DNA from: Aplysia californica
Lineage: Eukaryota
Assembly (NCBI RefSeq): GCF_000002075.1
Contig: NW_004797862.1
Location: 394,992-458,991, forward strand
Direction: 5' to 3'
DNA length: 64,000 nucleotides
This document shows positions 12,677-48,755 of this stretch, piece after piece. Both the position numbers and the translations under genes were made by a program. The notes under the pieces are model-generated. The model was not told the DNA's origin and searched no databases. It saw only the letters and a program-made list of their open reading frames with translations. Numbering within the stretch: the stretch's first letter is position 1; every line of letters begins with the position of its first letter.

Positions 12677-15553
12677 TGAGATATGATTTGAAAGACCTTT
12701 GGCCCATATGTCCACACGGAGACAGATATAACTTCGAAAGAAAGACAGCGAGCTTACGTCCACTGTTTTAGCAATCTCATTTTGACGAAGTCTCTCCCTG
12801 TACTGCAGCTCTATCTTCTTGGTTCTCTTCAGGAACTCTGGCAGGGATCCCTCCTGCAGCATACCAATGTGCTTCTTGATCTGTGCAAGCTTGTCTTGAT
12901 ACATCCTGTAACAGAAGGCATCTCTTGTTCATTGTTGTTTTTGTAAGTGTTTTACGGGGCTCGCAACGACATAAGGTCATATGAGCGCGCGGGACACATT
13001 AAACTTTTTCAGTTGGTAGGAAATTTTGAATTTTGTCCGGGTGGCGGCCGAAGCCTACTCTTATCGATTTTAGACCACCGAGGGATCTTCAACGTGCGCG
13101 ACTTGCACACAGGCCCTCCGAGATTTTTCGCCCTTGTCCGAGAAGGCTAGGTGTAGATCTTTCCTACAAGAAGATCAGAGGTGTGGCTGAAAGACAGCAG
13201 TAAGAAGAAGCCAAGGAGTAACAGTAGAAAGGCTGTAGAAAGAATCAGGAGCCCACAGGGGGGGGGAAGGGGGGGAGAGCAAAGGAGATGAGGGAGTGGG
13301 GGAAGAAAGAGGAGACTAAAGCAGACGACAGAACATTGCTAGAGAGCAGGAAAGGAGGTGAAAGGAGACAAATTTAAAGAAGAAAATTTTCCAGCCACTA
13401 CCGGGATTCGAACCCGGGACTTTTGAATGAGAGGCCAACACCTTAACCTCTAGGCCACGAGAGCCCCTCATCTCTTGTTGCATCATGGCAATAATTAGAA
13501 CACTTGTTCTGGTCCTGATTGCTTCAGGTTTTGTAGTAAGAGTTTTACCGTACTTGCACCACAATAAGGTCATAAAGTGCCCGAAGATTAGAAGTGTTAC
13601 AAAAGATTAACAAACGCCAAAAAAAAAAAAGACAGATAAATAACAAACCACACCAGAGCACCCGCCAACCACCCACGTTCTAGTCCTGGTATATATCAAC
13701 ATCTCTTACAATGCCAAGAAAGTTGTCTGAGTACGTACAGTCCAAAATAATCACCTTTCGGTCACCTACATGCCTTGTAACTACGGTAAATGTATCCTCA
13801 AGGGATGTACAGTAATAAATACTTATGACCTCAGGAATGAATGAGTTGTGCTGAAAAACTAATCAGCTGCTGGACCAGTTTTATCATTCACGTCAAAAGT
13901 TGACTTCTTCCCCCTAAAGCAAGCCTGCGTCTGATTATAACTTGACGACCATTTATAATAAACCTATCCCCGTCGTTTTATGCAATAAAAATTCTGAAAC
14001 TATGCAAACTGAGCCCAAAAATGTGAAATTATGCGATTCTGTTAATTTTAACAAAGAATAATAAAGAAAAATAATCAGAAATTATGCAAAGATTAAATTT
14101 TGGTAAATTATGCGGGGTGCATAAAACCACGGGGACAGATAAACTAATACATTTCTTTTCTAGTTTTAAGAACAAACCAATTAGAAGTACCTTCTTCATC
14201 ATAAACAGGTTCAATCACTGTGCATCAAGTTTTTTGTTTTAGTAGAGGGTTTTACGGAGTTCACAACTGCATAAGGTCATATGAGCGCCAAGGGGTGGGT
14301 GTCAACAGAGAAGTCCTTACAGGGAATCAGACTTACTCCGCTGACCTTCTAGCTTCAACAGCACAAGGTCTGCTTCGACCATCAAGGCACCCAGGAAATA
14401 GCAGATCACAAGAGTGACAAACATATAAAAGAAGTAGAGGAAAAATGACAATAGTAAGGATTAGGAAAGAAAAAGCAGCAGTTCACTGTTGCAGATCCGG
14501 CACAGTTATATGAGCGTGACATGATGAATCAGAGCATTTACAATTCTACTGTGCTTGAACGAGAAATGTCCCCCCTTTGGGAATGGCCTAAAGACACTTC
14601 AGTCAGTGGCACTGCCCCGGGGGGTATGGAGATCAGAGGAAAAAAGGATGATAGATGTTTGACAGGAAAGAAGAAGCAAACCACACCAGAGCATCCGTCA
14701 ACCACCCACTGCGCATCACTTTAAAAATATAATTTGAGCCCTGCAGCCTGCATAACAAGCTAGTGCTTTATCAGCTTCACGTTCACATTCAAAAGTCTTG
14801 GAAGTTCACACTTTAAAGTCACTGACTGCAAATACCATCACTCACTGCGTTTGTACGCCTAGGCGTACGAGAAACCCAGATACCACACCCCTGTCGGTTT
14901 CCATTGCTTTACTATTTTCACACTATCTACACAGCCATGACCAGTCTCTGCAGCTGAGGAAAGGGAATGCTTGCTATATAATGCCTCTTTAATTCTGTTT
15001 TTACATCCCTTGATCCCTATAGGGTCGGAGGGGGGTTGTGGTATTTTTTCAGTGAGGAGAGTTACAATAGGTTTGGTTTTTTTAGATCTGGCACAGTGTT
15101 TTGCAAACTTTATGTTGAATTAAGAAAACGTCCAGCCTCTGAATGAAAAAAAACCCCGTTCATTTCTATGTGTTCTGATTATGAACAAGGTGTACCAGAT
15201 GGCCACCAAAGTGACTTATCCAATTATTATTCTGTGGAAAAATGAAAAGGGTTCTAAAAAAAGTGCCTCAGAGGCTGTTTTTTGTACTTCCTCAACTAAG
15301 AGCTCAAGAAATTCCACGTTTACTTTTGTTCATACATATGTACGCTATATTTCAAATAATCATACAAAAACAAAAAATAAATATTGAAAATGTTTTCACC
15401 TCAATTATACATGACATAAAAAATAGTGCAAATTATAAGTGCCTACTTTGAATGCTTATCCGACAATAAATATTCTCTAACACCCGAAAAGCTGGCAGAC
15501 AGGGTTAAATTGAGATTATTTAATGAAGACAGTGAGGGTAAGACTTAAATGAA

Positions 15554-26600: not shown

Positions 26601-28726
26601 GATGTGCAGTTAATACAGTATTTCACTGATAGGGCGCACACAGAAGACTCGAAATCATGCATCTGTCGAACTGTGCCTTTGGTCCCCTTTTTTTTTCCTG
26701 CTTATTTTTCTTTGAAAGATTATATCCCTCGAACTACCGAGGCCGGTCCTGACAAATTAATTTGAGCTATCCATGTTATACTATTCTATGTAAGAACAGT
26801 CAAACACAGGTAACTCGAATTCGTCGGGGTTTGGAAATAGTGGTCGAGATTTCCGTAATTTGTCATGTCCATGAAAGCCCCAAATACAAAGGAAATAGAG
26901 AGAAAATCAAGGGAGGTAACGAAAAGAACATGAAAACAATCAATGTGGTTAACTCCCCTGATGATCGTGTTGATGGTGTGAAAGCAAGAAGATGCGAGAA
27001 AGTTTTGAAAGTGGAGAGCAGTAAATTTCACCTGTGCCCAGCCGACACCTATTTCGTTCCTTTCCTCTCATTTCAATGTCTTACAAAAAGTTACACCTCT
27101 TGCCATCTCTGCAACGCGCGCGTCCCACAGCATGATTGCACGCATGGCGAGCCAGTCATGCGGTGCGGTCAGCATCACTCCCCAACCCCCTTCCCTGCCC
27201 CCCCCCTTCTTCCAGCCTCTTGTGGTAAGACAAGGACCACGTTTTGGCTGTAACAATAATTAAATATAACAAAGAATCACCTATCCGCGGCCAGAGAGGC
27301 TTTAAAGCTGGGTCTTTTTTTGAGAATGCGAAGTGGATTTGTTTGAGTTCGAGCTTCGAGTGTTGCGTGTTCCGAGTGTACGGGAACTCCGTGAAATCAA
27401 TACAAAGAAAACATGGGGACTAAAACGGGACCAAACGTTATGTTCGACATACCCGAGAATTCGGGATTTTCATGTTCGGGATTCGTGTACTCTACTGTAG
27501 TATTAGTATGGATTATTAATATTAGAATAGCGCATCGATTTGAATAGGTGAAAGAGATTTTTATAATGTTATGATTTTGATTTAATCATTGAATCTGGCC
27601 AGTGCATTTGGATAATATCGTTTAATATATGCGCACATACACTGCATACATCTGTGTCTTCGTTCCTGTGTGTATTCTTGTTTGTGTGAGTTTTAGTAAG
27701 ATGAAGAGCAGAATCAGGGAGATGGGGGGGGAGGGGAGATTCTTAGTTTTATTTGCCACATAATAGAACTGTATGTAAAACATTGTGAATTTTTTTTTCA
27801 TGAAATTAACTGCAATGGAGGGTTCACTGCAATGCAGTTTTATTTCCTTACAATCTTGCAAAGATGTATTGAAAATAATACACAAGTACAGATGAAATTC
27901 TGTGTTGTCTGCTAGAGGTAATCATGTTGGCTGCTTGAAATTCATCTCTTGTAGTTTTGTCTTTCACTTTCAGGTTCTGACGGAGATGAGAAGTGACTAT
28001 ATCAAATGGCCAACTGATCAAATTGGACTTCGTAAAATTGCTCTTGAATTCGACCAAGAGACGGGGATGCCAGGTGTTGTAGGAGCCGTTGACGGAATAC
28101 ACTTTCCCATCAAGCAAAAATCTCGCCTAGGCCATGCATACAGAAACAGCCAGGGCTATCTCAGTATCCATATGCAGGCGGTATGTGATGCAAACTTTAT
28201 GTTCCTCGACGTCCACTGCGGCAATCCAGGGTCTGTGGATGACGAGACTGTGTACAGGTCGTGTGACCTGCGAGCCAAACTTTTGCACGACCCTCTCCCG
28301 GCCGATCTCCACCTTGTGGGGGATGCGGGATACCCACTGGAGCCGTTCATGCTCACTCCGTTCCCAGGTGATGTCCGTCGCCTCACTCGACAGCAGAAGG
28401 AATTCAACGACCGGCACACGAACGCTGTGCTGGCCGTGAAAATTTCCCTACAGCTCCTCCAAGGTCGTTTTCAGCGCCTCAAGTTCCTGGACATGGAGCG
28501 GGAGTCTGACATTCCGGTGACCATTGTGGCCTGCTGCGTTCTTCACTGCTTCCTGTTGCAGGAGGAGAACGATGAGGAAGAAGAGGAGTTTCTAGATTTG
28601 TCCGAAATTGACCCGACTCCAGATATCAACAAATCAGAGAAGGAGTTGAGAGCCTTGTGCAATCATTATCAACCGGAGGCAGCTAGTAAAAGAGATGTTC
28701 TAGCTAACCTTATAACTCCTGTTTAG
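20111..28726 (+). CDS. PIF/Harbinger transposase-derived protein (HARBI1/ALP1-like, DDE_Tnp_4), 3 exons, ~498 aa, probably catalytically dead
   Basis: Exons 20111-20677, 25806-25982 and 27974-28726; GT-AG, phase 0, no stops. Motifs FKSHYRMSR, HTH-like EQKVLASLFLLG...SKGSL, GAVDGIHFPI, GSVDD, LVGDAGYPL and FNDRH...LLQGRF. Confidence 0.9.
21520..22303. mobile_element. pogo/Tigger-like MITE
   Basis: TA|CAGTCCA[C/T]GCCGGCTTT[G/A]AGCACG TIRs with a TA TSD. Confidence 0.8.
24349..25048. mobile_element. pogo/Tigger-like MITE
   Basis: TA|CAGTGGAATC...GATTCCACTG|TA; a second copy lies at ~31660-32439 between gaps. Confidence 0.8.
25806..25982 (+). CDS. Harbinger-derived gene exon 2 (HTH region)
   Basis: Acceptor tcacag, donor CAG|gtgagc, 59 codons. 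Confidence 0.88.
26797..27498. mobile_element. Degenerate pogo-like MITE
   Basis: CAGTCAAAC...ACTCGAA left end and TTCGGG repeats...CTACTG|TA right end. Confidence 0.5.
27974..28726 (+). CDS. Harbinger-derived gene exon 3 (DDE_Tnp_4 nuclease-fold domain)
   Basis: Acceptor tttcag; D and D retained, with E replaced by K at 28439-28441; stop TAG. Confidence 0.93.
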   Translation, partial: VLTEMRSDYIKWPTDQIGLRKIALEFDQETGMPGVVGAVDGIHFPIKQKSRLGHAYRNSQGYLSIHMQAVCDANFMFLDVHCGNPGSVDDETVYRSCDLRAKLLHDPLPADLHLVGDAGYPLEPFMLTPFPGDVRRLTRQQKEFNDRHTNAVLAVKISLQLLQGRFQRLKFLDMERESDIPVTIVACCVLHCFLLQEENDEEEEEFLDLSEIDPTPDINKSEKELRALCNHYQPEAASKRDVLANLITPV

Positions 28727-38756: not shown

Positions 38757-38923
38757 CCTAATAATAATAAAGATAATAAACAACGTCAGCATCTTGCCTT
38801 TATGTAAGAAAATAAAAAAGGAAATTTAGCATAATAAACGGAACTTTAAATACCTGTGCCTGATAAAGGATAATAGAAAAAACTCTTCACTTTACTTCAA
38901 CTTATACTTATAATTCTCCTTAA

Positions 38924-39163
38924 TCCTATCCGTACGCCCTGGGGTCATTTTGTACCCCCGGGGTTGTATGCTTCACATTTTAGAATACTTCTAGTACAAA
39001 AATCTCTTTGAAACTCTCAGTATTTCTCAAAAAATCATTTTGACAGACTGCTGTGCAAAGCTTGCGGATCAGGTTAACGAGTAAATTTCCGCTTTGGAAA
39101 GTGGTGGCACAGAGTTCTCCATGTCGTACGGATACGATAGAAAAAACACGACGTACGATAGGG
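38924..39163. mobile_element. piggyBac-like MITE
   Basis: TTAA|TCCTATCCGTACG...CGTACGATAGGG|TTAA. Confidence 0.6.
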
Positions 39164-39444
39164 TTAAACTAACTTGTACATGAGGGCAGCACAGTTTTCA
39201 AATGAATCAAACATGTAAAAATACTGAGTATTAATATTAATTATTATTAATTATAATTGTAGGAGGAGTCACACTAAGGAGATTAAAAGTTGTCTTCTCA
39301 CCTCGTCTTGTCCTCCCATGTTTATCCCCTCCGTGTTCCAAGCTCCTTGAGTCACACCGATACACTTCAACATCAATGGTATCTTGGTTTCCTAGTTCCA
39401 TTAATACAATGTACTACAGTAGGCCTACCGGTACGATAGGCAGC

Positions 39445-39995
39445 ACAAGGACACTCAAACATACCTGGAAATGACAGAGCAGACACACTCGCCAAAAGGG
39501 GATCTAGACAGGAACAACCCAACATTTCAACTTCATACAACACTGCAAAACAAATCATTAAAAGCAACAGCAAACAAGATTGGAAGAACAGAGATAGGCC
39601 TTGGGACAGACAGGCAGAACAGTCTTCAAACATGACTACAACAAAACGAAACGACAATATCAACCACCTACAGAGAAAGAAACAGACCACGCTCTTCCGT
39701 CGAACAGAACATATAGGCCTACAGCTCAACTTTCACTTGAACCGAATAAAACCAGAACTTCCCCCAATATGCCCTTTGTGTGACTATGCATATGAGACAG
39801 TGGAACATCACCTTTTCCATTGCACAGCCCTAAATGACATCCAGAGCTACACTTGTCTCTCCGAGATGTAACTTCGACAACACACTCTACGGAACATTAC
39901 AGCAACTGCAGCAAACCTGCACTTATCACTACATGGCATTGGACAGAAAGGCGAGAGCCCAGCTGTTGCTGGATCGATAACAACAACAACAACAT
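39445..39995 (+). mobile_element. 3' fragment of an RNase H-bearing LINE (I/Nimb/Ingi-like)
   Basis: GHSNIPGNDRADTLAK (end of RNase H), CPLC...ETVEHHLFHC zinc knuckle, (AAC)n tail. Confidence 0.8.
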
Positions 39996-40198
39996 AGACA
40001 GCACAAGTAACAAGACTGAGGAAAAGATGGCTTCCAGCAAGGACAAAGGGAAATGCTTCTCTCTCGAATTAATTAAGGCCAAGATAATCAATAAAGTTGA
40101 GAAGAAAATTTTACGGATATGGAAGGGAGGTGATCATGTGGATTTTTAGAATTTTTTCAGTAATTCCCCTTCACATTCCTCCTGTAGCGGCAACTTGC

Positions 40199-40570
40199 CT
40201 AATCCAGGATTCTTCTCCTGGCACCAGCAGTCCCTCTGGCACCAGGAGTCCCTCTACAGCCATGATCTGCCACAGGAGAATTTAATGATAATGTTGTCTC
40301 CCTTGTGAGGTTCCCAAAACTGGCCTCAAACAGAGCAACATTGCAAAAGTTTTCCGCAATCAAGCTTTGTTCACGAGGAAGGTCCCTGAGCTTATGTGCT
40401 ATGGTTTTTCCGTAGGAATCGAACTGATCTTCTTCTGTGGCTACACGGGGGCTGTGCAGTCTCGGCCGTTTGGAGCTGGATCCTGGTCTTGGCTCAGGAC
40501 TCGACCTAAAGTCCTCAGCATACTGTGACTGTATGTTGTCAGAATCATCAGTTGAACCAAGGCTGTATAT
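40199..40570 (-). pseudogene. Remnant of the Harbinger ORF2 (MADF/Myb-SANT partner) C-terminal exon with a BESS-like motif
   Basis: Open 124-codon frame after a gaccag acceptor: EEDQFDSYGKTIAHKLRDLPREQSLIAENFCNVALFEASFGNL. Confidence 0.65.
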
Positions 40571-40757
40571 CTGGTCAAGAAAGTCGGAGTGGCAAAATAA
40601 AAATGGAGTAAATTAAGGTTAATAAATTATTATGTGTTTGTTGCTGTTGTTTTTTGTTTGTTTGTTTGTTTGTTTGTTAGTTTGTTTTTATTGACAAGAA
40701 TTGCTTAGGTAATGATAGATCTAGTATATCCTTTTTTTTCTTTCAAATTTTCCCCAG

Positions 40758-41310
40758 TTTCCAAGAAATTCGGATGAATGGCAGCAAATGTAACCCCAAC
40801 AGTTGGACATTAAATGGCAGTTATAAAATCCTAACTATTTGGGTGCTGTAGATGGCAAGCATATTATAGAGAGCTATATCTCCACCCCTGGCTCTAGCTC
40901 CTATTATCACAATTGCAAGGGATTCCATAACATGGTACTGTTGGCTATTGCTAATGCTGAGATTATGAGCTGTTGTATGTGAATTTCGGAACAGATGGAC
41001 GGGTTTCTGATGGTGGTGGGATTGACCAGATAGATTCCAACGAACTGAAGAGTAAAGATCTACCTTTGCCACAGCCAAACGATTCAAATTGCCTTCCCTA
41101 CGTGTTCATTGCAGATGAAGCCTTGCTCTACGACTGAACTTTTAGAAGCCTTACAATGAGAGGGTGCAAGATGGCAAAAAGAATATTTAATTACCGACTC
41201 TCAAGGGGTAAGAAGAATTGTGGAGAATGACTTTGGTATTCTTCTAGTTTCCAGATTTGGGGTACTGAAGTCTGAAATAAAGCTCAAACCAGAGAACATA
41301 TCGACTCTGT
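40758..41310 (+). pseudogene. Degenerate Harbinger transposase, last exon
   Basis: Frameshifted and stop-containing motifs LGAVDGKHI, YHNCKGFHNMVLLAI, GRVSDGG, LPYVFIADEA and IFNYRLSRG-RRIVENDFGIL. Confidence 0.85.
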
Positions 41311-41924
41311 TGTTTTCGGCCTTTTCTTACCTCAATCGGCCGTTTGATCAAAATGTTATTTTCACACACTTTAATATCCCATTTTTCTGCTCTGTTTCGT
41401 ATTTGATTTTAATGTAACTTTCACAGAATGTTAACGAGACACCTAGTTCTAAAAAAGTTCTGAGGAAATTTTGATTGCTTTAACTTTTGATAAAAAATTG
41501 CCTCAGAGAAAGTTAGATTTTTCCCTAGGTTTTTTTTCACAATTATGCAATTAGCCGATAATTTTAATGTGCTATAAAATGAAAACTAAAGCATATACCA
41601 AAAATTCCTCAACACAAATTTTTTATCTGTACTTTTACTACGTACTGTAAAATGTAAAATTAAAAGTGAATTTGTACATTTAAACAAATTTAAAAAACAG
41701 GATAAAAAAAGGTAAACAAAATCCAATATGGCGCCGTTAACGTTTCCAGAGCAACTGAACCATAATATTTACTTTTTAAACAATAATGGACGCTAAATTC
41801 TCAGCGATACATGATGTCCCACAGCAAATAATATGTGCTCTCTAGGGTTTGTAAAATTGTAATAGCTTATGAAACCGATCTGAACCTGGGTTGAACTAGA
41901 GAGAGACGAGAAGAAGTATAACAG

Positions 41925-42462
41925 AATTTGTTTTTGTAAATAAAGTGTTTTACGGCGCTTGCAACTGCATAAGGTCATATGAATATGAGCGCGCGGGACA
42001 CACCTAATATTTTCAGTTGGTAGGAAATTTTGAATTTTGCCCAGGTGGGGGCCGAAGCCTACTCTTATAGATAATCGATTTTAGACCACCAAGGGATCTT
42101 TAATGTGCGCAACTTGCACACGGGCCCTCCGAGATTTTTCGCCCTTGTCCGAGAAGGCTAGGTGTAGATCCATCCTACCAGAAGATCAAGGGTGAGGCAG
42201 AAAGACAGCAGTAAGGAAGAGCCAAGGAGTAGCAGTAGAAAGGCTGCAGAAAGAATGAGCCCACAGGAGGGGGCAAAGGAGGTGAGGGGGTGGGGGCAGA
42301 AAGTGGAAATGAAAGCAGACAACAGAACATTGCTAGAGAGCAGGAAAGGAGGTGAAAGGAGACAAATTTAGAGAATAAAATTGTTCTGTCGCTACCCAGA
42401 TTCAAACCCGCGACCTTTGAATGAGATGTCACCACCTTAACCTCTAGGCCATGAGAGCCCCC
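41925..42462 (-). mobile_element. SINE family A copy
   Basis: Colinear with the 12930 copy; TSD GTATAACAG. Confidence 0.85.
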
Positions 42463-42533
42463 GTATAACAGCTAGAATGTTAGGTAAAGAAATCCAGAGA
42501 GCATATTGAACAAACAGAAGCAAGACCGCCCAT

Positions 42534-43373
42534 TCAATCTACCTGCTCAGGAAATTTCCTCTCCCCTCCTGTTTCGAACAGGTCGGAATCAAGATCCTTG
42601 CATTCATCGTCGAACCAAATCCGCAAGTCATCTGCCTCTTTCAGGTTAGGATTCATCCTCAGTGGGCTCTCCACTAGCACTGAAAGGGTCTTTTCATTAA
42701 AATACGTAACTTTAGCTCTTTTCACAGCTACCACAGGGCTGTTCTCGCCGTCAAACGTCTTCGCTGTCTCTCCCCACAAGGTCAGAGTAACTCTCATTTT
42801 AGACCCATCAATGATCCGGAGGTCTCGCTTCATGCTTCCCAGTTTCGACGGTACTGGGACAACGTCGTCGCACCCTACGACAACACCAATAACGTCTACA
42901 AGGGAGTCGTTCTCATATTTCTCCAAATCAGATAGCTTCACAAAGTTAAATTTCATATCTGGCACAGTTGATCTACTATAATCAGGACAAATCTCAATCC
43001 TTGAATCACGACCCAATGTCATCTGGTTCTTGTTTTTCACAGTGTCATATTTTTGCTTCGCATTCTGCAGTAGGCAGTTGGAAATATAATACACTTCGCC
43101 CACAGTGAACTTGTCAAAGTATGCGTGTGCCCATTCATTAAATCCTGTGCAACAAATCTCTCCGCTGTCATCCAAAAAAATAACTTTGAAGAAACAGCCC
43201 GGGCCTTTATCATTGCTATAGTGCTGCATGTCGGATCTGTGGATCACCCGAGCCCGAATTTTCCATCCTTTTTTGTTAAGATCGAGGCTTGCAATCGAAT
43301 GGACGCCACGTTTGGAAGAGTCTTGTGAGGACCTCTTCAAACCCGGGGTCGAAGAGCTACCCTCCACCTGACT
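42534..43373 (-). CDS. RPA1/RPA70-like ssDNA-binding protein, DBD-A plus DBD-B only (terminal exon; 5' exon probably in or beyond the gap)
   Basis: WKIRARV, DDSGEICCTGFNE, VGEVYYIS, VDVIGVV, VTLTLWGETA, VVAVKRAKV and LRIWFD match RPA70 OB-A and OB-B. Polypyrimidine acceptor tttttcag at 43374; stop just after DBD-B. Confidence 0.88.
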   Translation of the reverse strand, partial: SQVEGSSSTPGLKRSSQDSSKRGVHSIASLDLNKKGWKIRARVIHRSDMQHYSNDKGPGCFFKVIFLDDSGEICCTGFNEWAHAYFDKFTVGEVYYISNCLLQNAKQKYDTVKNKNQMTLGRDSRIEICPDYSRSTVPDMKFNFVKLSDLEKYENDSLVDVIGVVVGCDDVVPVPSKLGSMKRDLRIIDGSKMRVTLTLWGETAKTFDGENSPVVAVKRAKVTYFNEKTLSVLVESPLRMNPNLKEADDLRIWFDDECKDLDSDLFETGGERKFPEQVD

Positions 43374-45210
43374 CTGAAAAAAAAAAGAAAAGAAAATCCC
43401 GAAGTGAGAGTGGTGTCTGAGGTTGGCGGAAAGGTGGTTGTTTTGGTTTTTGGTTTGATTGGGGGGTTTTTGGGGTTTTTTTTGTTTGTTTGTTTGTTTG
43501 TTCGTTCGTTGTTGTGGTTGTTTTTAGGGGGTTAGTGGTGGTTTTCTTTGTGCTTTTTGTTTTGTTTTGATTTTTTGNNNNNNNNNNNNNNNNNNNNNNN
43601 NNNNNNNNNNNNNNNNNNNNNNNNNNNNNNNNNNNNNNNNNNNNNNNNNNNNNNNNNNNNNNNNNNNNNNNNNNNNNNNNNNNNNNNNNNNNNNNNNNNN
43701 NNNNNNNNNNNNNNNNNNNNNNNNNNNNNNNNNNNNNNNNNNNNNNNNNNNNNNNNNNNNNNNNNNNNNNNNNNNNNNNNNNNNNNNNNNNNNNNNNNNN
43801 NNNNNNNNNNNNNNNNNNNNNNNNNNNNNNNNNNNNNNNNNNNNNNNNNNNNNNNNNNNNNNNNNNNNNNNNNNNNNNNNNNNNNNNNNNNNNNNNNNNN
43901 NNNNNNNNNNNNNNNNNNNNNNNNNNNNNNNNNNNNNNNNNNNNNNNNNNNNNNNNNNNNNNNNNNNNNNNNNNNNNNNNNNNNNNNNNNNNNNNNNNNN
44001 NNNNNNNNNNNNNNNNNNNNNNNNNNNNNNNNNNNNNNNNNNNNNNNNNNNNNNNNNNNNNNNNNNNNNNNNNNNNNNNNNNNNNNNNNNNNNNNNNNNN
44101 NNNNNNNNNNNNNNNNNNNNNNNNNNNNNNNNNNNNNNNNNNNNNNNNNNNNNNNNNNNNNNNNNNNNNNNNNNNNNNNNNNNNNNNNNNNNNNNNNNNN
44201 NNNNNNNNNNNNNNNNNNNNNNNNNNNNNNNNNNNNNNNNNNNNNNNNNNNNNNNNNNNNNNNNNNNNNNNNNNNNNNNNNNNNNNNNNNNNNNNNNNNN
44301 NNNNNNNNNNNNNNNNNNNNNNNNNNNNNNNNNNNNNNNNNNNNNNNNNNNNNNNNNNNNNNNNNNNNNNNNNNNNNNNNNNNNNNNNNNNNNNNNNNNN
44401 NNNNNNNNNNNNNNNNNNNNNNNNNNNNNNNNNNNNNNNNNNNNNNNNNNNNNNNNNNNNNNNNNNNNNNNNNNNNNNNNNNNNNNNNNNNNNNNNNNNN
44501 NNNNNNNNNNNNNNNNNNNNNNNNNNNNNNNNNNNNNNNNNNNNNNNNNNNNNNNGAGGTCGGTAAGCCATCAGGTGACTGATGCCCCGCACCTCCGACT
44601 CCATCACTAAAATCCAGAGCTATAAAGGCACCGCGTAGCACCACTCGTGAACGCATCAAAACCTTGTCTTACAAGCACGGGTGACAAAGGAGGTATCAAG
44701 ATACAGTCTTGACTTCAAGTGCGCAGGTTTTATACGTCGTATGAGACAAATAAAAGAGGCGCACAGACAGATTATTATAACGTTACTTAGTAAAAAAGCA
44801 ATATTGTGGATTTTAAAGGAGTAAAGAGAAACGTATAATTATATCGACTCAATAACGTTCTTAGAGAGTTAGGGAAAAGACGAGCTTTTAATTATCTATT
44901 CCCGGTCAGTTTTCCATGTAAAAACACGAGCTTTGTAAAATACGTGGGCGTTATAAGACCTCAAAACTGAGGGTGTCTCCGTTTTGGTTGTAACAACAAC
45001 AACAGCAACAACATCAACAACAACAGCAACAACATCAACAACAACAGCAACAACAAGATAACGACAACAACAAAAACAACCAAAGGAAGAAAATAGTTCA
45101 GTAGAGCCTGCCTGAGGCGCCCTCCAACCGCCCAACAGAGGACATCAAGACCTGGTCGATTCAGAGTAGATAACAGGAACCGTTGCTCGGAACAAACGGC
45201 GACGACGACG

Positions 45211-45572: not shown

Positions 45573-48500
45573 GGGGGGGACTGTTAAGTTCACAGAGACC
45601 CAAGCCTGTGCGCCTTGTACCTGCTCCATCCTTTTCTTCATTGGGGTACTGTAACCTTCTGTACTCATGTTTCCCTCGTCTGGCTTCTCAGAAGATTGGG
45701 AGCAGTTTGCTCGGTTTGAGATGGAATTCGGACTGGAGCTAGATTCCCAGTACAGTCTTCAGCATCTAAAAATAGAAAAGTGATACAGTGTTAATTTAGT
45801 GTGGCTTCACTAGCGCACAGACTTTGAATGAACTTTGGTGAACCCAACAGGCACTCACAATGTGATGCGAAAGCACAGGTTCACTGACCGGTCACGATGG
45901 CGAGCCCAACAATTTAAGACGCTTGTGTATGACTTTTTTTTTTCAGCAAGTGACTGCACAGTACAAATATTGATTTATAATATATTCATTTCCGTTACCG
46001 TGTACGTAGATACCAAGACTAGGTGCCCGTTTACCGTGTACATAGACACTCCATAATAATTATTATGCAATAGGTCCCAGCTAGGTTTGCATCCGGACAA
46101 CGACGGAAAATGTTCTTCTCTAAAATATAGGCTGACATTATTCTCCTTTCTCCACCTCTGCTCTCTAACTCTAACAACGTATTTTTCTGTCTCTGCTTTC
46201 GTCTCCACTTTCTGCCCCCACTCCGACACCTCTTTTGACTTTTGTCCCCTCCTCACAGGGGCTCTTAAAAAAACAAGTAGTATATAGGCCTAGCTTACAG
46301 TTAAATGCAGAAATACATGAGAGTACAAGTACTTGTTGTCTTACTAACAGCAGTCAAGCCTGCATTTGTGAGGCAGCGTGGTGGAATCAGGCTCTCGTCA
46401 AAATAATCACAGTGAAGAAACTTGCATTTTTCCGCAGGTTTGCGAATTTTTATCAAATTTTTGTTTTTGGGCTCAATACCTTTTAAAGGCCATTAAAGAA
46501 CTCATTTCTGTGTGGATTCTACTGAAAAACGTCGATTAAAGGCACAAAAGATATACATTTTCAGTTACCACAGACTCTATCGTCATCAGTATAATATAAC
46601 CTATTATTTTAATTCTTCTTCTTCTTCTTTTATTATATATATCATTATTATTATCATTTTTATTATCATTATATATTGTATTGTGTTACGTTGTGTTGCT
46701 TTGTATGTAAACAAGAGGGTATAGTATATATGGGGAATATTCTGTTAACATGTGATACGGAGACACCAAAGTAATTAGGCTACATTTCCTAAAACTCTCT
46801 CTGAAGACAATAAATAGATTTTTAAAATGGCAGTGAGCCAATCATTGGAAAACACAAGAGAGTACATACTGATACCCAAGAATTACAAAGTTTTATCAGC
46901 TCAGTATCTAGTATCAAGAGATTTGACATTAAAACTTTTGAGTTTCATAGCACATGACCAGCTTTTTCGAAAGCAATTCTTTGAATAATATAGATCTACT
47001 GAATGTTTCTGAGTGTTCTCAGGGGGTCTGCTAGGGTAATAATAGTTGTAAAGCGCATAGACCATGGTTCTTGAGCATGGATACGCGCTATATAAATGCA
47101 ATTATTATTTTTTTATTTTTTAAAAATTATTATTAGGACTCTGGATGATCTTACGATTTTGGTAGAGCAGAAAGAACATTTAATTTGGTTTCCAACCTCA
47201 TGACCTTATAGTAACTCGACAAACAGCCACAAATTTCAGATAGAACTTTGTATACTTGCATATTATGTACTTCTAAAGTAGCGGTACATGTACGTCCAAA
47301 CAGCAGTGATCGCGGAGGTTAACCAAAAGACGCAGTGACTGATCTGTATATATGGAATTAAATTGTGACTGCTGTTTGGGTGAGCCAATATATATATATG
47401 GTCCACACAACCACATGCATGGCTACCATATACCACAACGCTAAATATAGACCAGGTGTCACCAAAGTATAATAACCCACGGGACAGATCCGACGCCCAA
47501 GGTCAGTTAAATCGTCTGGCCTGCCGCCATTCCACCATGTAGGAGGGGGGGGGGTCGACTTGGAAGAACTGTTCGTTGGGTGCTCAGGACTTAGTCACTA
47601 AAACAATTTAGTCTTACCAATTACTAATATAAGGAAAAAATTGAGACTCATGTCAATGTCAAAAGCGCCTTAGTTACAAATAATACAAACAGTGAAATTC
47701 TGATAAAGTCAACACCTCGGGACCGAAAGAAAAGTGGGGGGGGGGGGAGGGGGGGGACTGTTAAGTTCACAGAGACCCAAGCCTGTGCGCCTTGTACCTG
47801 CTCCATCCTTTTCTTCATTGGGGTACTGTAACCTTCTGTACTCATGTTTCCCTCGTCTGGCTTCTCAGAAGATTGGGAGCAGTTTGCTCGGTTTGAGATG
47901 GAATTCGGACTGGAGCTAGATTCCCAGTACAGTCTTCAGCATCTAAAAATAGAAAAGTGATACAGTGTTAATTTAGTGTGGCTTCACTAGCGCACAGACT
48001 TTGAATGAACTTTGGTGAACCCAACAGGCACTCACAATGTGATGCGAAAGCACAGGTTCACTGACCGGTCACGATGGCGAGCCCAACAATTTAAGACGCT
48101 TGTGTATGACTTTTTTTTTTCAGCAAGTGACTGCACAGTACAAATATTGATTTATAATATATTCATTTCCGTTACCGTGTACGTAGATACCAAGACTAGG
48201 TGCCCGTTTACCGTGTACATAGACACTCCATAATAATTATTATGCAATAGGTCCCAGCTAGGTTTGCATCCGGACAACGACGGAAAATGTTCTTCTCTAA
48301 AATATAGGCTGACATTATTCTCCTTTCTCCACCTCTGCTCTCTAACTCTAACAACGTATTTTTCTGTCTCTGCTTTCGTCTCCACTTTCTGCCCCCACTC
48401 CGACACCTCTTTTGACTTTTGTCCCCTCCTCACAGGGGCTCTTAAAAAAACAAGTAGTATATAGGCCTAGCTTACAGTTAAATGCAGAAATACATGAGAG

Positions 48501-48755
48501 TACAAGTACTTGTTGTCTTACTAACAGCAGTCAAGCCTGCATTTGTGAGGCAGCGTGGTGGAATCAGGCTCTCGTCAAAATAATCACAGTGAAGAAACTT
48601 GCATTTTTCCGCAGGTTTGCGAATTTTTATCAAATTTTTGTTTTTGGGCTCAATACCTTTTAAAGGCCATTAAAGAACTCATTTCTGTGTGGATTCTACT
48701 GAAAAACGTCGATTAAAGGCACAAAAGATATACATTTTCAGTTACCACAGACTCT
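45573..48755 (+). repeat. ~1-kb near-identical direct duplication (45573-46578 = 47750-48755)
   Basis: Identical translated ORFs at an offset of 2177; copy 1 abuts a gap. Confidence 0.9.

Follow-up and report, generated by a model that had tools for sequence, protein, structure and literature searches.

The window, a stretch of 64,000 nucleotides of the Aplysia californica genome, carries on its minus strand an open frame of 279 codons (43373-42537) that is identical, except for its final two residues, to the database protein XP_005107378/9 (Aplysia californica, 416 aa). In the database this protein bears the plain name RPA70. The gene is compared below with the parental RPA1 (XP_005109695, contig C799) and with a sister paralog (XP_005102684, LOC101858348, contig C332; the C332 paralog). 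Its features are as follows.

49631..49658, minus strand: candidate five-unit GAAA-NN array of IRF/ISRE type, directly upstream of likely 5' exons shared with the C332 paralog
49179..49300, minus strand: likely 5' non-coding exon, suggested by its AG...GT borders and 70% likeness to the C332 paralog
47798..47942, minus strand: second, identical copy of the first coding exon (sequence duplicate)
45621..45765, minus strand: first coding exon with its ATG at 45668; a homologue of the RPA1 linker exon, though in a different frame
42543..43373, minus strand: DBD-A and DBD-B exon of RPA70, 277 codons, equal to the parental RPA1 exon
42534..42542, minus strand: start of the intron, with the GT donor and the TGA earlier called the stop (junction 42543/40570 in 7 of 8 runs)
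41860..42542, minus strand: RPA-derived intron, homologous to the C332 paralog, with a common repeat inserted at about 41920-42462
41314..41854, no strand assigned: high-copy repeat on the junction of Harbinger-derived and RPA-derived intron
40740..41316, plus strand: decayed Harbinger transposase core of the same element as the tail, antisense in the intron; frame shifted by 7 of the 9 indels specific to the window
40199..40570, minus strand: terminal coding exon, 123 codons long, derived from the final exon of a Harbinger MADF gene
40007..40198, minus strand: 3' UTR; 40007 is the end of 5 of 7 transcript contigs
38803..39393, no strand assigned: more Harbinger sequence beyond the captured exon, parted from it by an insertion that includes the LINE 3' fragment 39440-39868

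Splicing was checked in 8 of 24 listed runs, comprising seven contig runs and one raw-read run. Position 42543 was joined to 40570 by GT-AG in 7 of the 8, that is, in all seven contig runs, which come from six studies, and the contig was unbranched over the junction. The raw-read run, X21, had an exon cover of 0.2-3.7x and no junction listed. The library type of the contig runs was guessed, none being recorded as RNA; the joined form is nevertheless spliced. Contigs lose rare isoforms, and minor read-through or other forms are possible. In the three contig runs followed that far, the first exon at 45621-45765 lay in the same contig, together with 368-415 unplaced 5' bases. Joining 45668-45621, 43373-42543 and 40570-40199 across GT-AG introns gives XP_005107378 exactly. 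The product is a 416-aa chimera of RPA70 DBD-A/B and a 123-aa transposon tail, encoded by a three-exon coding sequence. The TGA at 42534 falls 7-9 nt into the intron (exon ending CAG, intron beginning GTAGATTGA), and the splicing onward to 40570 rules out 42534 as a real protein end. The first-pass annotation had described a minimal two-OB protein in a single exon, with a 5' exon to be sought inside the N stretch 43578-44555. About 280 open, intron-free codons are indeed there, but the stop is intronic, the exon is the ordinary parental RPA1 exon, the tail makes the protein more than two OB folds, and the first coding exon lies elsewhere, at 45621-45765 with its copy at 47798-47942. Both copies are contained in a 1006-bp duplication (45573-46578 and 47750-48755, 100% identity) beside a 100-N gap. 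This duplication is likely an assembly artefact behind the two identical-protein isoforms of RefSeq, and colinearity with the C332 paralog favours the 47798-47942 copy, over the one at 45621-45765, as the probable original.

The two OB folds and the stacking aromatics had been recognised correctly from the start. The open frame matches REPA_OB_2 (PF16900) at E 6e-24, with a weaker OB match in addition, and the best PDB match of the predicted model is human RPA70 AB (1jmc, E 9e-24). The predicted structure is made up of two OB folds, mostly at pLDDT 70-92, of a linker predicted as disordered and of two helices, 339-354 and 359-381; the helices follow a Ser/Pro-rich stretch with KRPR in the terminal coding exon. 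The equivalents of F238, F269, W361 and F386 are F94, Y125, W216 and F241: all four stacking aromatics are present. The DBD-A polar contacts R210, R234, K263 and E277, named in PMC4269926 and PMC3438722, are replaced by Q, C, Q and Q; 9 of 9 non-paralog RPA1 rows of the alignment have R, R, K and E at these positions. Polar mutations can sharply lower affinity and aromatic ones modestly, and the polar contacts are not conserved through evolution (PMC4937323). Because all four are altered here, the retained aromatics are no proof of strong ssDNA binding, which is likely weakened or retargeted rather than proven lost.

The reported lack of DBD-C was also borne out. No DBD-C exon was found in the window or in 20 kb on either side, and the transcript contigs pass into the transposon exon without a branch, so that a hidden DBD-C exon was rejected. 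A genome search of the fragmented assembly gave no third DBD-C exon, the two that were found belonging to the other RPA1 genes. DBD-F is missing as well, and a search for a decayed upstream DBD-F exon gave nothing above shuffle. With neither DBD-C nor DBD-F, the protein therefore likely stands outside the RPA trimer. To that extent the stand-alone binder proposed earlier is supported.

Genome searches gave at least three DBD-B exons and at least two DBD-C exons, which are lower bounds in a fragmented assembly. The parental RPA1 has four coding exons, corresponding to DBD-F, the linker, the large DBD-A/B region and DBD-C. The single DBD-A/B exon of the window gene is the parental state, since the exon recurs in parental RPA1 with identical boundaries, and both introns flanking it are at parental positions. 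The window gene is 44% identical to parental RPA1 and, in the OB exon, 63% identical to the C332 paralog, which consists of a linker-derived exon, an A/B exon and a DBD-C exon. The first coding exon and intron sequence are common to the two paralogs. This first coding exon is the parental linker exon read in a new frame (scores of 60.5 and 80 against shuffles near 29; in the window gene 60.5 against 28.9 +/- 4.9). In a quick tree of 21 rows the two paralogs are sisters (SH-aLRT 100) and stand next to Aplysia RPA1 (93), with terminal branches of 1.05 for the window gene, 0.40 for the C332 paralog and 0.03 for parental RPA1; the placement is less sure because long branches may distort such a tree. 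Judged by its exon structure, the gene is a DNA-level duplicate of RPA1 and not a product of retroposition: the two parental introns and the parental linker exon rule out a retrocopy. The view of the locus as an intact, diverged RPA70 paralog is upheld by its kept frame and spliced transcripts. The parent could be located on C799 as had been advised, and RPA1 proved to be multiple, with at least three genes in the genome. Searches of the genome for the RPA2 and RPA3 families found nothing and were uninformative. No ortholog of the chimera turned up in three word-based searches of limited sensitivity, which included no related genomes.

A search with the tail exon, up to E 0.001, gave 214 relatives. 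A MADF domain is present in 25 of 147 aligned relatives, many of the others being short single-exon fragments, and the tail matched at 8 other genome places. The Harbinger family at C360:373932-378206, also seen on C77, C517 and C639, has interleaved antisense genes: the MADF intron houses the transposase core exon, and the transposase intron houses the last exon of MADF. The order in the C360, C77 and C517 copies is MADF exon 1, transposase core exon on the opposite strand and MADF last exon, with the transposase first exon further out in the C360 and C77 copies. At the locus, the transposase core is present, as is the last MADF exon, still with its native acceptor, while MADF exon 1, or the right end of the element, was not found in the window; the position of the MADF DNA-binding exon is hence taken by the OB exon. 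MADF exon 1 would have suggested capture inside an element, and that origin was set aside with its absence from the window. Private substitutions in three copies of the transposase stretch number 32, 27 and 30 in 479 sites, about 7% each. This value is close to the 9% divergence per lineage since the paralog split, and the fusion is therefore likely about as old as the duplication. Pfam BESS (PF02944) is absent from the hits of the protein and from the 25 families shown for the 147 relatives. Comparison of BESS with the tail motif gave an hhalign probability of 5.9% and P 0.006, in register, and BESS clusters appeared as Atlas feature matches at 0.88-0.90, which serve as a lead only. By sequence, the conserved tail motif resembles BESS weakly. 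In-frame deletions in the tail at 40459-40490 (minus strand) preserved the KR of the MADF basic motif, making KRPR, which we take to be a possible nuclear localisation signal.

Structure prediction supports homodimerisation of the tail. Two copies of residues 325-395 gave a predicted complex with a dimer score of 0.56, against 0.00 for the best of three controls; the runs agree in at least 80% of contacts, with pLDDT at least 71, and the predicted contacts fall on the family-conserved G347, A351 and A376. The dimer mark is reached by 7 of 16 animal homodimers and by 0 of 30 eukaryote monomers. Among eukaryote dimers for which no older relative had been solved, just 1 of 7 reaches it. A sequence search found no solved relative of the tail.

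The record of the window gene in the PMC8195618 supplement is LOC101853118 / XM_005107321. The gene is expressed in two sensory-neuron clusters with no significant age trend (PMC7522570), which lends no support to the germline factor suggested earlier. Its transcript belongs to the 'greenyellow' module of PMC8195618 (membership 0.84, hub ZNFX1), described by the authors of that study as the response to RNA viruses that interferon mediates. Parental RPA1 falls into this module too (0.87), and a second annotated transcript of the window gene is in another module at 0.26 (PMC8195618). The C332 paralog is grouped with RPA2, RPA3 and SOCS2 in another immune-enriched module, with RPA2 as its hub (PMC8195618). 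According to the published tables, the antiviral modules include piRNA factors, and the module of C332, RPA2 and RPA3 is rich in DNA-damage genes. In PMC12871377, the window gene shifts by 2.7-3.3 log2 in three contrasts and the C332 paralog by 5.1-6.9 log2 in six; TREX2, IRF5/IRF8 and DDX58 shift the same way as the window gene, and parental RPA1 has no row among the rows listed. The lab cohort of that study had a low viral load, and its authors read the shift as hypoxia repression; we infer an antiviral programme. Taken together, the window transcript is co-expressed with IRF/RLR genes in published tables, as a correlation. RPA2 and RPA3 also shift, and oyster RPA1 is listed as responsive in published tables. 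With the parent in the same module as well, the regulation may therefore be inherited.

The C332 paralog (C332:738575-745583) resembles the window gene in its DBD-F-less origin, first coding exon and immune-linked expression, and differs from it in keeping the Zn-finger DBD-C, in belonging to the RPA2-hub module and in having no transposon exon. It could trimerise because DBD-C is retained. Its shifts of 5-7 log2 and its covariation with RPA2, the module hub, and RPA3 suggest an inducible alternative RPA trimer.

A search for IRF-type motifs was prompted by the expression data. The array at 49631-49658 is presumably of IRF type, by the consensus. The exact five-unit array occurs at 3 genome places, including the window, and the reversed control at 0, for a pattern refined after the sighting. 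The window array is more perfect than the homologous site of the C332 paralog; that paralog carries, at 730808, a STAT-type site in whose place the window copy shows an insertion together with a longer IRF-type array. In 490 kb searched, the single other five-unit array lies in parental RPA1 intron 1 (C799:44903-45085), beside four STAT-type TTCNNNGAA sites, and this cluster might serve as an inducible internal promoter from which an RPA1 isoform without DBD-F is made. Such a promoter would account for the start of both duplicates after DBD-F. When the window promoter was aligned with RPA1 intron 1, the best local matches fell on the parental array, with scores of 67.5 against 62.8 +/- 6.7 and 86 against 72 +/- 6 for shuffles; being near shuffle and not significant, the homology is suggestive at most.

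How can these observations be accounted for? The gene encodes a spliced and expressed fusion of RPA70 OB folds with a Harbinger MADF tail; we propose that it acts as a self-pairing nucleic-acid binder of the antiviral response outside the RPA trimer, a reading to which we give about even chances. RPA1 was duplicated as DNA without the DBD-F exon, and then again. One copy lost the DBD-C exon and came to use the transposon's own splice acceptor, the order of these events being conjectural. The IRF-type promoter array would turn the gene on along with the interferon-like programme. Homodimerisation through the tail, as in the predicted dimer, would replace trimerisation with RPA2/RPA3 and bring four OB folds together. 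The altered DBD-A surface would bind ssDNA more weakly, or bind another nucleic acid, and the rapid amino-acid change may stem from conflict with viruses or mobile elements.

The strongest competitor is a transcribed duplicate under relaxed or no selection, with an inherited inducible promoter and a DBD-C deletion, in which the next good acceptor happened to be in frame. The frame of the gene is preserved, and its amino-acid change proceeds at the neutral rate or faster. Indels between the paralogs in the OB exon (51, 6, 9, 9 and 3 nt) are all in frame, against 9 of 9 non-triplet indels in short, hand-picked flanks (p 0.0005), where an alternative alignment has one 6-nt intron gap. Those in the tail, relative to the C517 copy, measure 3, 21, 36, 3 and 3 under four gap settings, while over 500 nt of the same element's transposase, frameshifts make up 7 of the 9 indels specific to the window (p 0.015-0.045 against the tail; p 0.11 when just the two window-specific tail events are counted). 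The coding sequence runs for 1,131 nt with no frameshift or stop, against about 16 frameshifts predicted from the same-locus transposase rate, and the chance of no stop under neutrality is 0.014-0.057. This, the clustering of adjacent changes within the same codon (37 of 45 pairs, p 0.016), the one dominant spliced form across six studies and the more perfect IRF-type array speak against a relaxed duplicate.

The substitution data lean the other way. Pairwise omega between the paralogs is 1.28, not different from 1 (p 0.33), and the unconstrained branch omega is 0.95. Tail omega against the closest transposon copy is 1.56 (not significant), and 0-fold against 4-fold divergence is 20% against 14% (p 0.22). 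Omega is about 1 in OB exon and tail alike. Sites invariant in other RPA1s are not clearly spared (26 of 89 changed, against 23 of 57 variable sites, p 0.21). Variant positions among the runs are non-synonymous in 6 of 6 cases (p 0.18 under neutrality, 0.003 for an omega of 0.2); five of the six lie within 65 nt of DBD-B (42793-42857, residues 189-210), in two runs of one study. The loss of four polar contacts and the presence of parental RPA1 in the same module fit a relaxed duplicate as well. Other figures speak for positive selection: lineage-specific amino-acid changes stand at 33 against 13 (p 0.0045), omega comes to 1.78-1.87 (p 0.016-0.024) assuming equal synonymous rates, and the in-codon clustering points the same way. 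Site models prefer M2a over M1a (p 6e-9). This result is not taken as proof, since the fit also gained from a neutral rate-mixture and a like signal can arise from multi-base mutations. The first-pass annotation had named an unexpressed locus with dN/dS near 1 as evidence against itself; omega is indeed near 1, yet the locus is expressed and its frame kept. On balance we consider a relaxed duplicate unlikely, but by no means far-fetched.

A bolder form of the antiviral proposal, possible though doubtful in our estimation, holds that the RPA70 duplicates form an inducible antiviral arm and that the window copy is a positively selected homodimeric nucleic-acid sensor or restriction factor, in which a dimerisation motif of transposon origin has taken over from the trimerisation domain; a core replication protein would thereby have reached a HIN-200-like design by an independent route. 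HIN-200 proteins (AIM2, IFI16, p202) are interferon-induced. They would work alike in combining tandem OB folds (E about 1e-10 to 1e-8) with a self-association module; they differ in showing 10-13% identity, in originating independently from RPA70 and in that the window protein has no pyrin domain.

Alternatively, the fusion could be a decoy in transposon control, its tail heterodimerising with Harbinger MADF proteins or binding transposases, and its OB folds tying them to ssDNA or sequestering them. In the Harbinger-derived HDP2, the C-terminal part is needed to bind the transposase-derived HDP1 (PMC5339849), and Harbinger ORF1 binds the transposase and carries it to the nucleus (PMC2836001); the 8 other matches to the tail and the piRNA factors within the antiviral modules would suit such a role. 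An intact transposase of the captured-tail family is present in 0 of 10 copies examined, however, and the OB exon changes as rapidly as the tail, which makes a decoy improbable. A stress-induced modulator of host DNA metabolism, a RADX-like competitor or helper of RPA with no immune role as the first-pass annotation proposed, has a slim chance. The aromatics are kept, RPA2, RPA3 and the sister paralog co-vary in the DNA-damage-rich module, and the RADX fold is among the structure matches; against this, a terminal branch of 1.05 beside 0.03 for the parent is hard to square with a host-DNA target, and DBD-F and the polar contacts are gone. The retrocopy or Helitron-captured single-exon two-OB gene once favoured has, despite the repeat-rich region, a negligible probability in view of the parental introns and linker exon, the spliced three-exon coding sequence and the lack of any Helitron family, Rep/helicase domain included, in 103 other window ORF stretches (19 + 84), from which short decayed remnants could escape. 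The 84 were scanned out of 109 ORF stretches of at least 68 aa from 28 kb on, leaving out low-complexity stretches, frames overlapping known genes and those already scanned.

We return to the antiviral fusion and its place among known systems. Like canonical RPA1/RPA70 (XP_005109695; 1jmc), the gene has the DBD-A/B fold, the F/Y/W/F aromatics and the exon boundaries; unlike it, it is without DBD-F and DBD-C, carries R210Q, R234C, K263Q and E277Q and a transposon tail, and evolves far faster. Judged by its sequence, the window protein fails as an RPA70 subunit and in its working would resemble a stand-alone tandem-OB binder. MEIOB is an RPA-related OB protein with a specialised role. RADX, Teb1, plant RPA1 paralogs and primate RPA4 are likewise RPA-related OB proteins in specialised roles (PMC4731521, PMC10779431), but all of these are old and conserved or act in a trimer, whereas the window gene is young, lineage-restricted and transposon-fused. 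In host-transposase fusions (Cosby et al., bioRxiv 10.1101/2020.05.07.082677) a host exon is spliced to a DNA-transposon exon to give a new protein, and in the window gene a host exon is indeed spliced in frame to a DNA-transposon coding exon. The transposon usually supplies the DNA-binding domain in the fusions described there; here the roles are reversed, the host supplying the nucleic-acid-binding part and the transposon an interaction module, and the tail comes from the accessory MADF gene rather than a transposase. With NAIF1, HDP2 (PMC5339849) and MADF-BESS proteins the gene has in common a helical interaction motif from the C terminus of a Harbinger MADF protein; it differs in that RPA OB folds stand in place of the MADF DNA-binding domain and Pfam BESS is unmatched.

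In animals RPA1 as a rule exists in one copy, and an RPA1 with DBD-C deleted is considered non-functional, as stated in PMC4731521. Of the three RPA1 genes in Aplysia, two evolve fast and are linked to the antiviral programme, and in one the assembly domain has given way to a transposon exon. If the fusion is functional, the transposon would supply an oligomerisation module and not the DNA-binding domain, and a core replication factor would have been recruited to innate immunity. The 'RPA1' strongly regulated in the Aplysia hypoxia study corresponds to the two paralogs, not to the replicative gene. The literature searched gave no account of the fusion, nor any of the paralogs in their own right; the protein is annotated as ordinary RPA70.

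Elsewhere in the window, LINE remnants were seen at 39440-39868 (plus strand, zf-RVT), in the insertion beside the 3' end of the gene, and at 51220-51903 (minus strand, RVT_1). A weak Sds3-like match at 12500-12928 (minus strand, E 6e-5) is probably a host-gene exon. An open 276-codon DDE_Tnp_4 (HARBI1-like) frame at 27896-28726 (plus strand) belongs to a different Harbinger family and is possibly active or domesticated.
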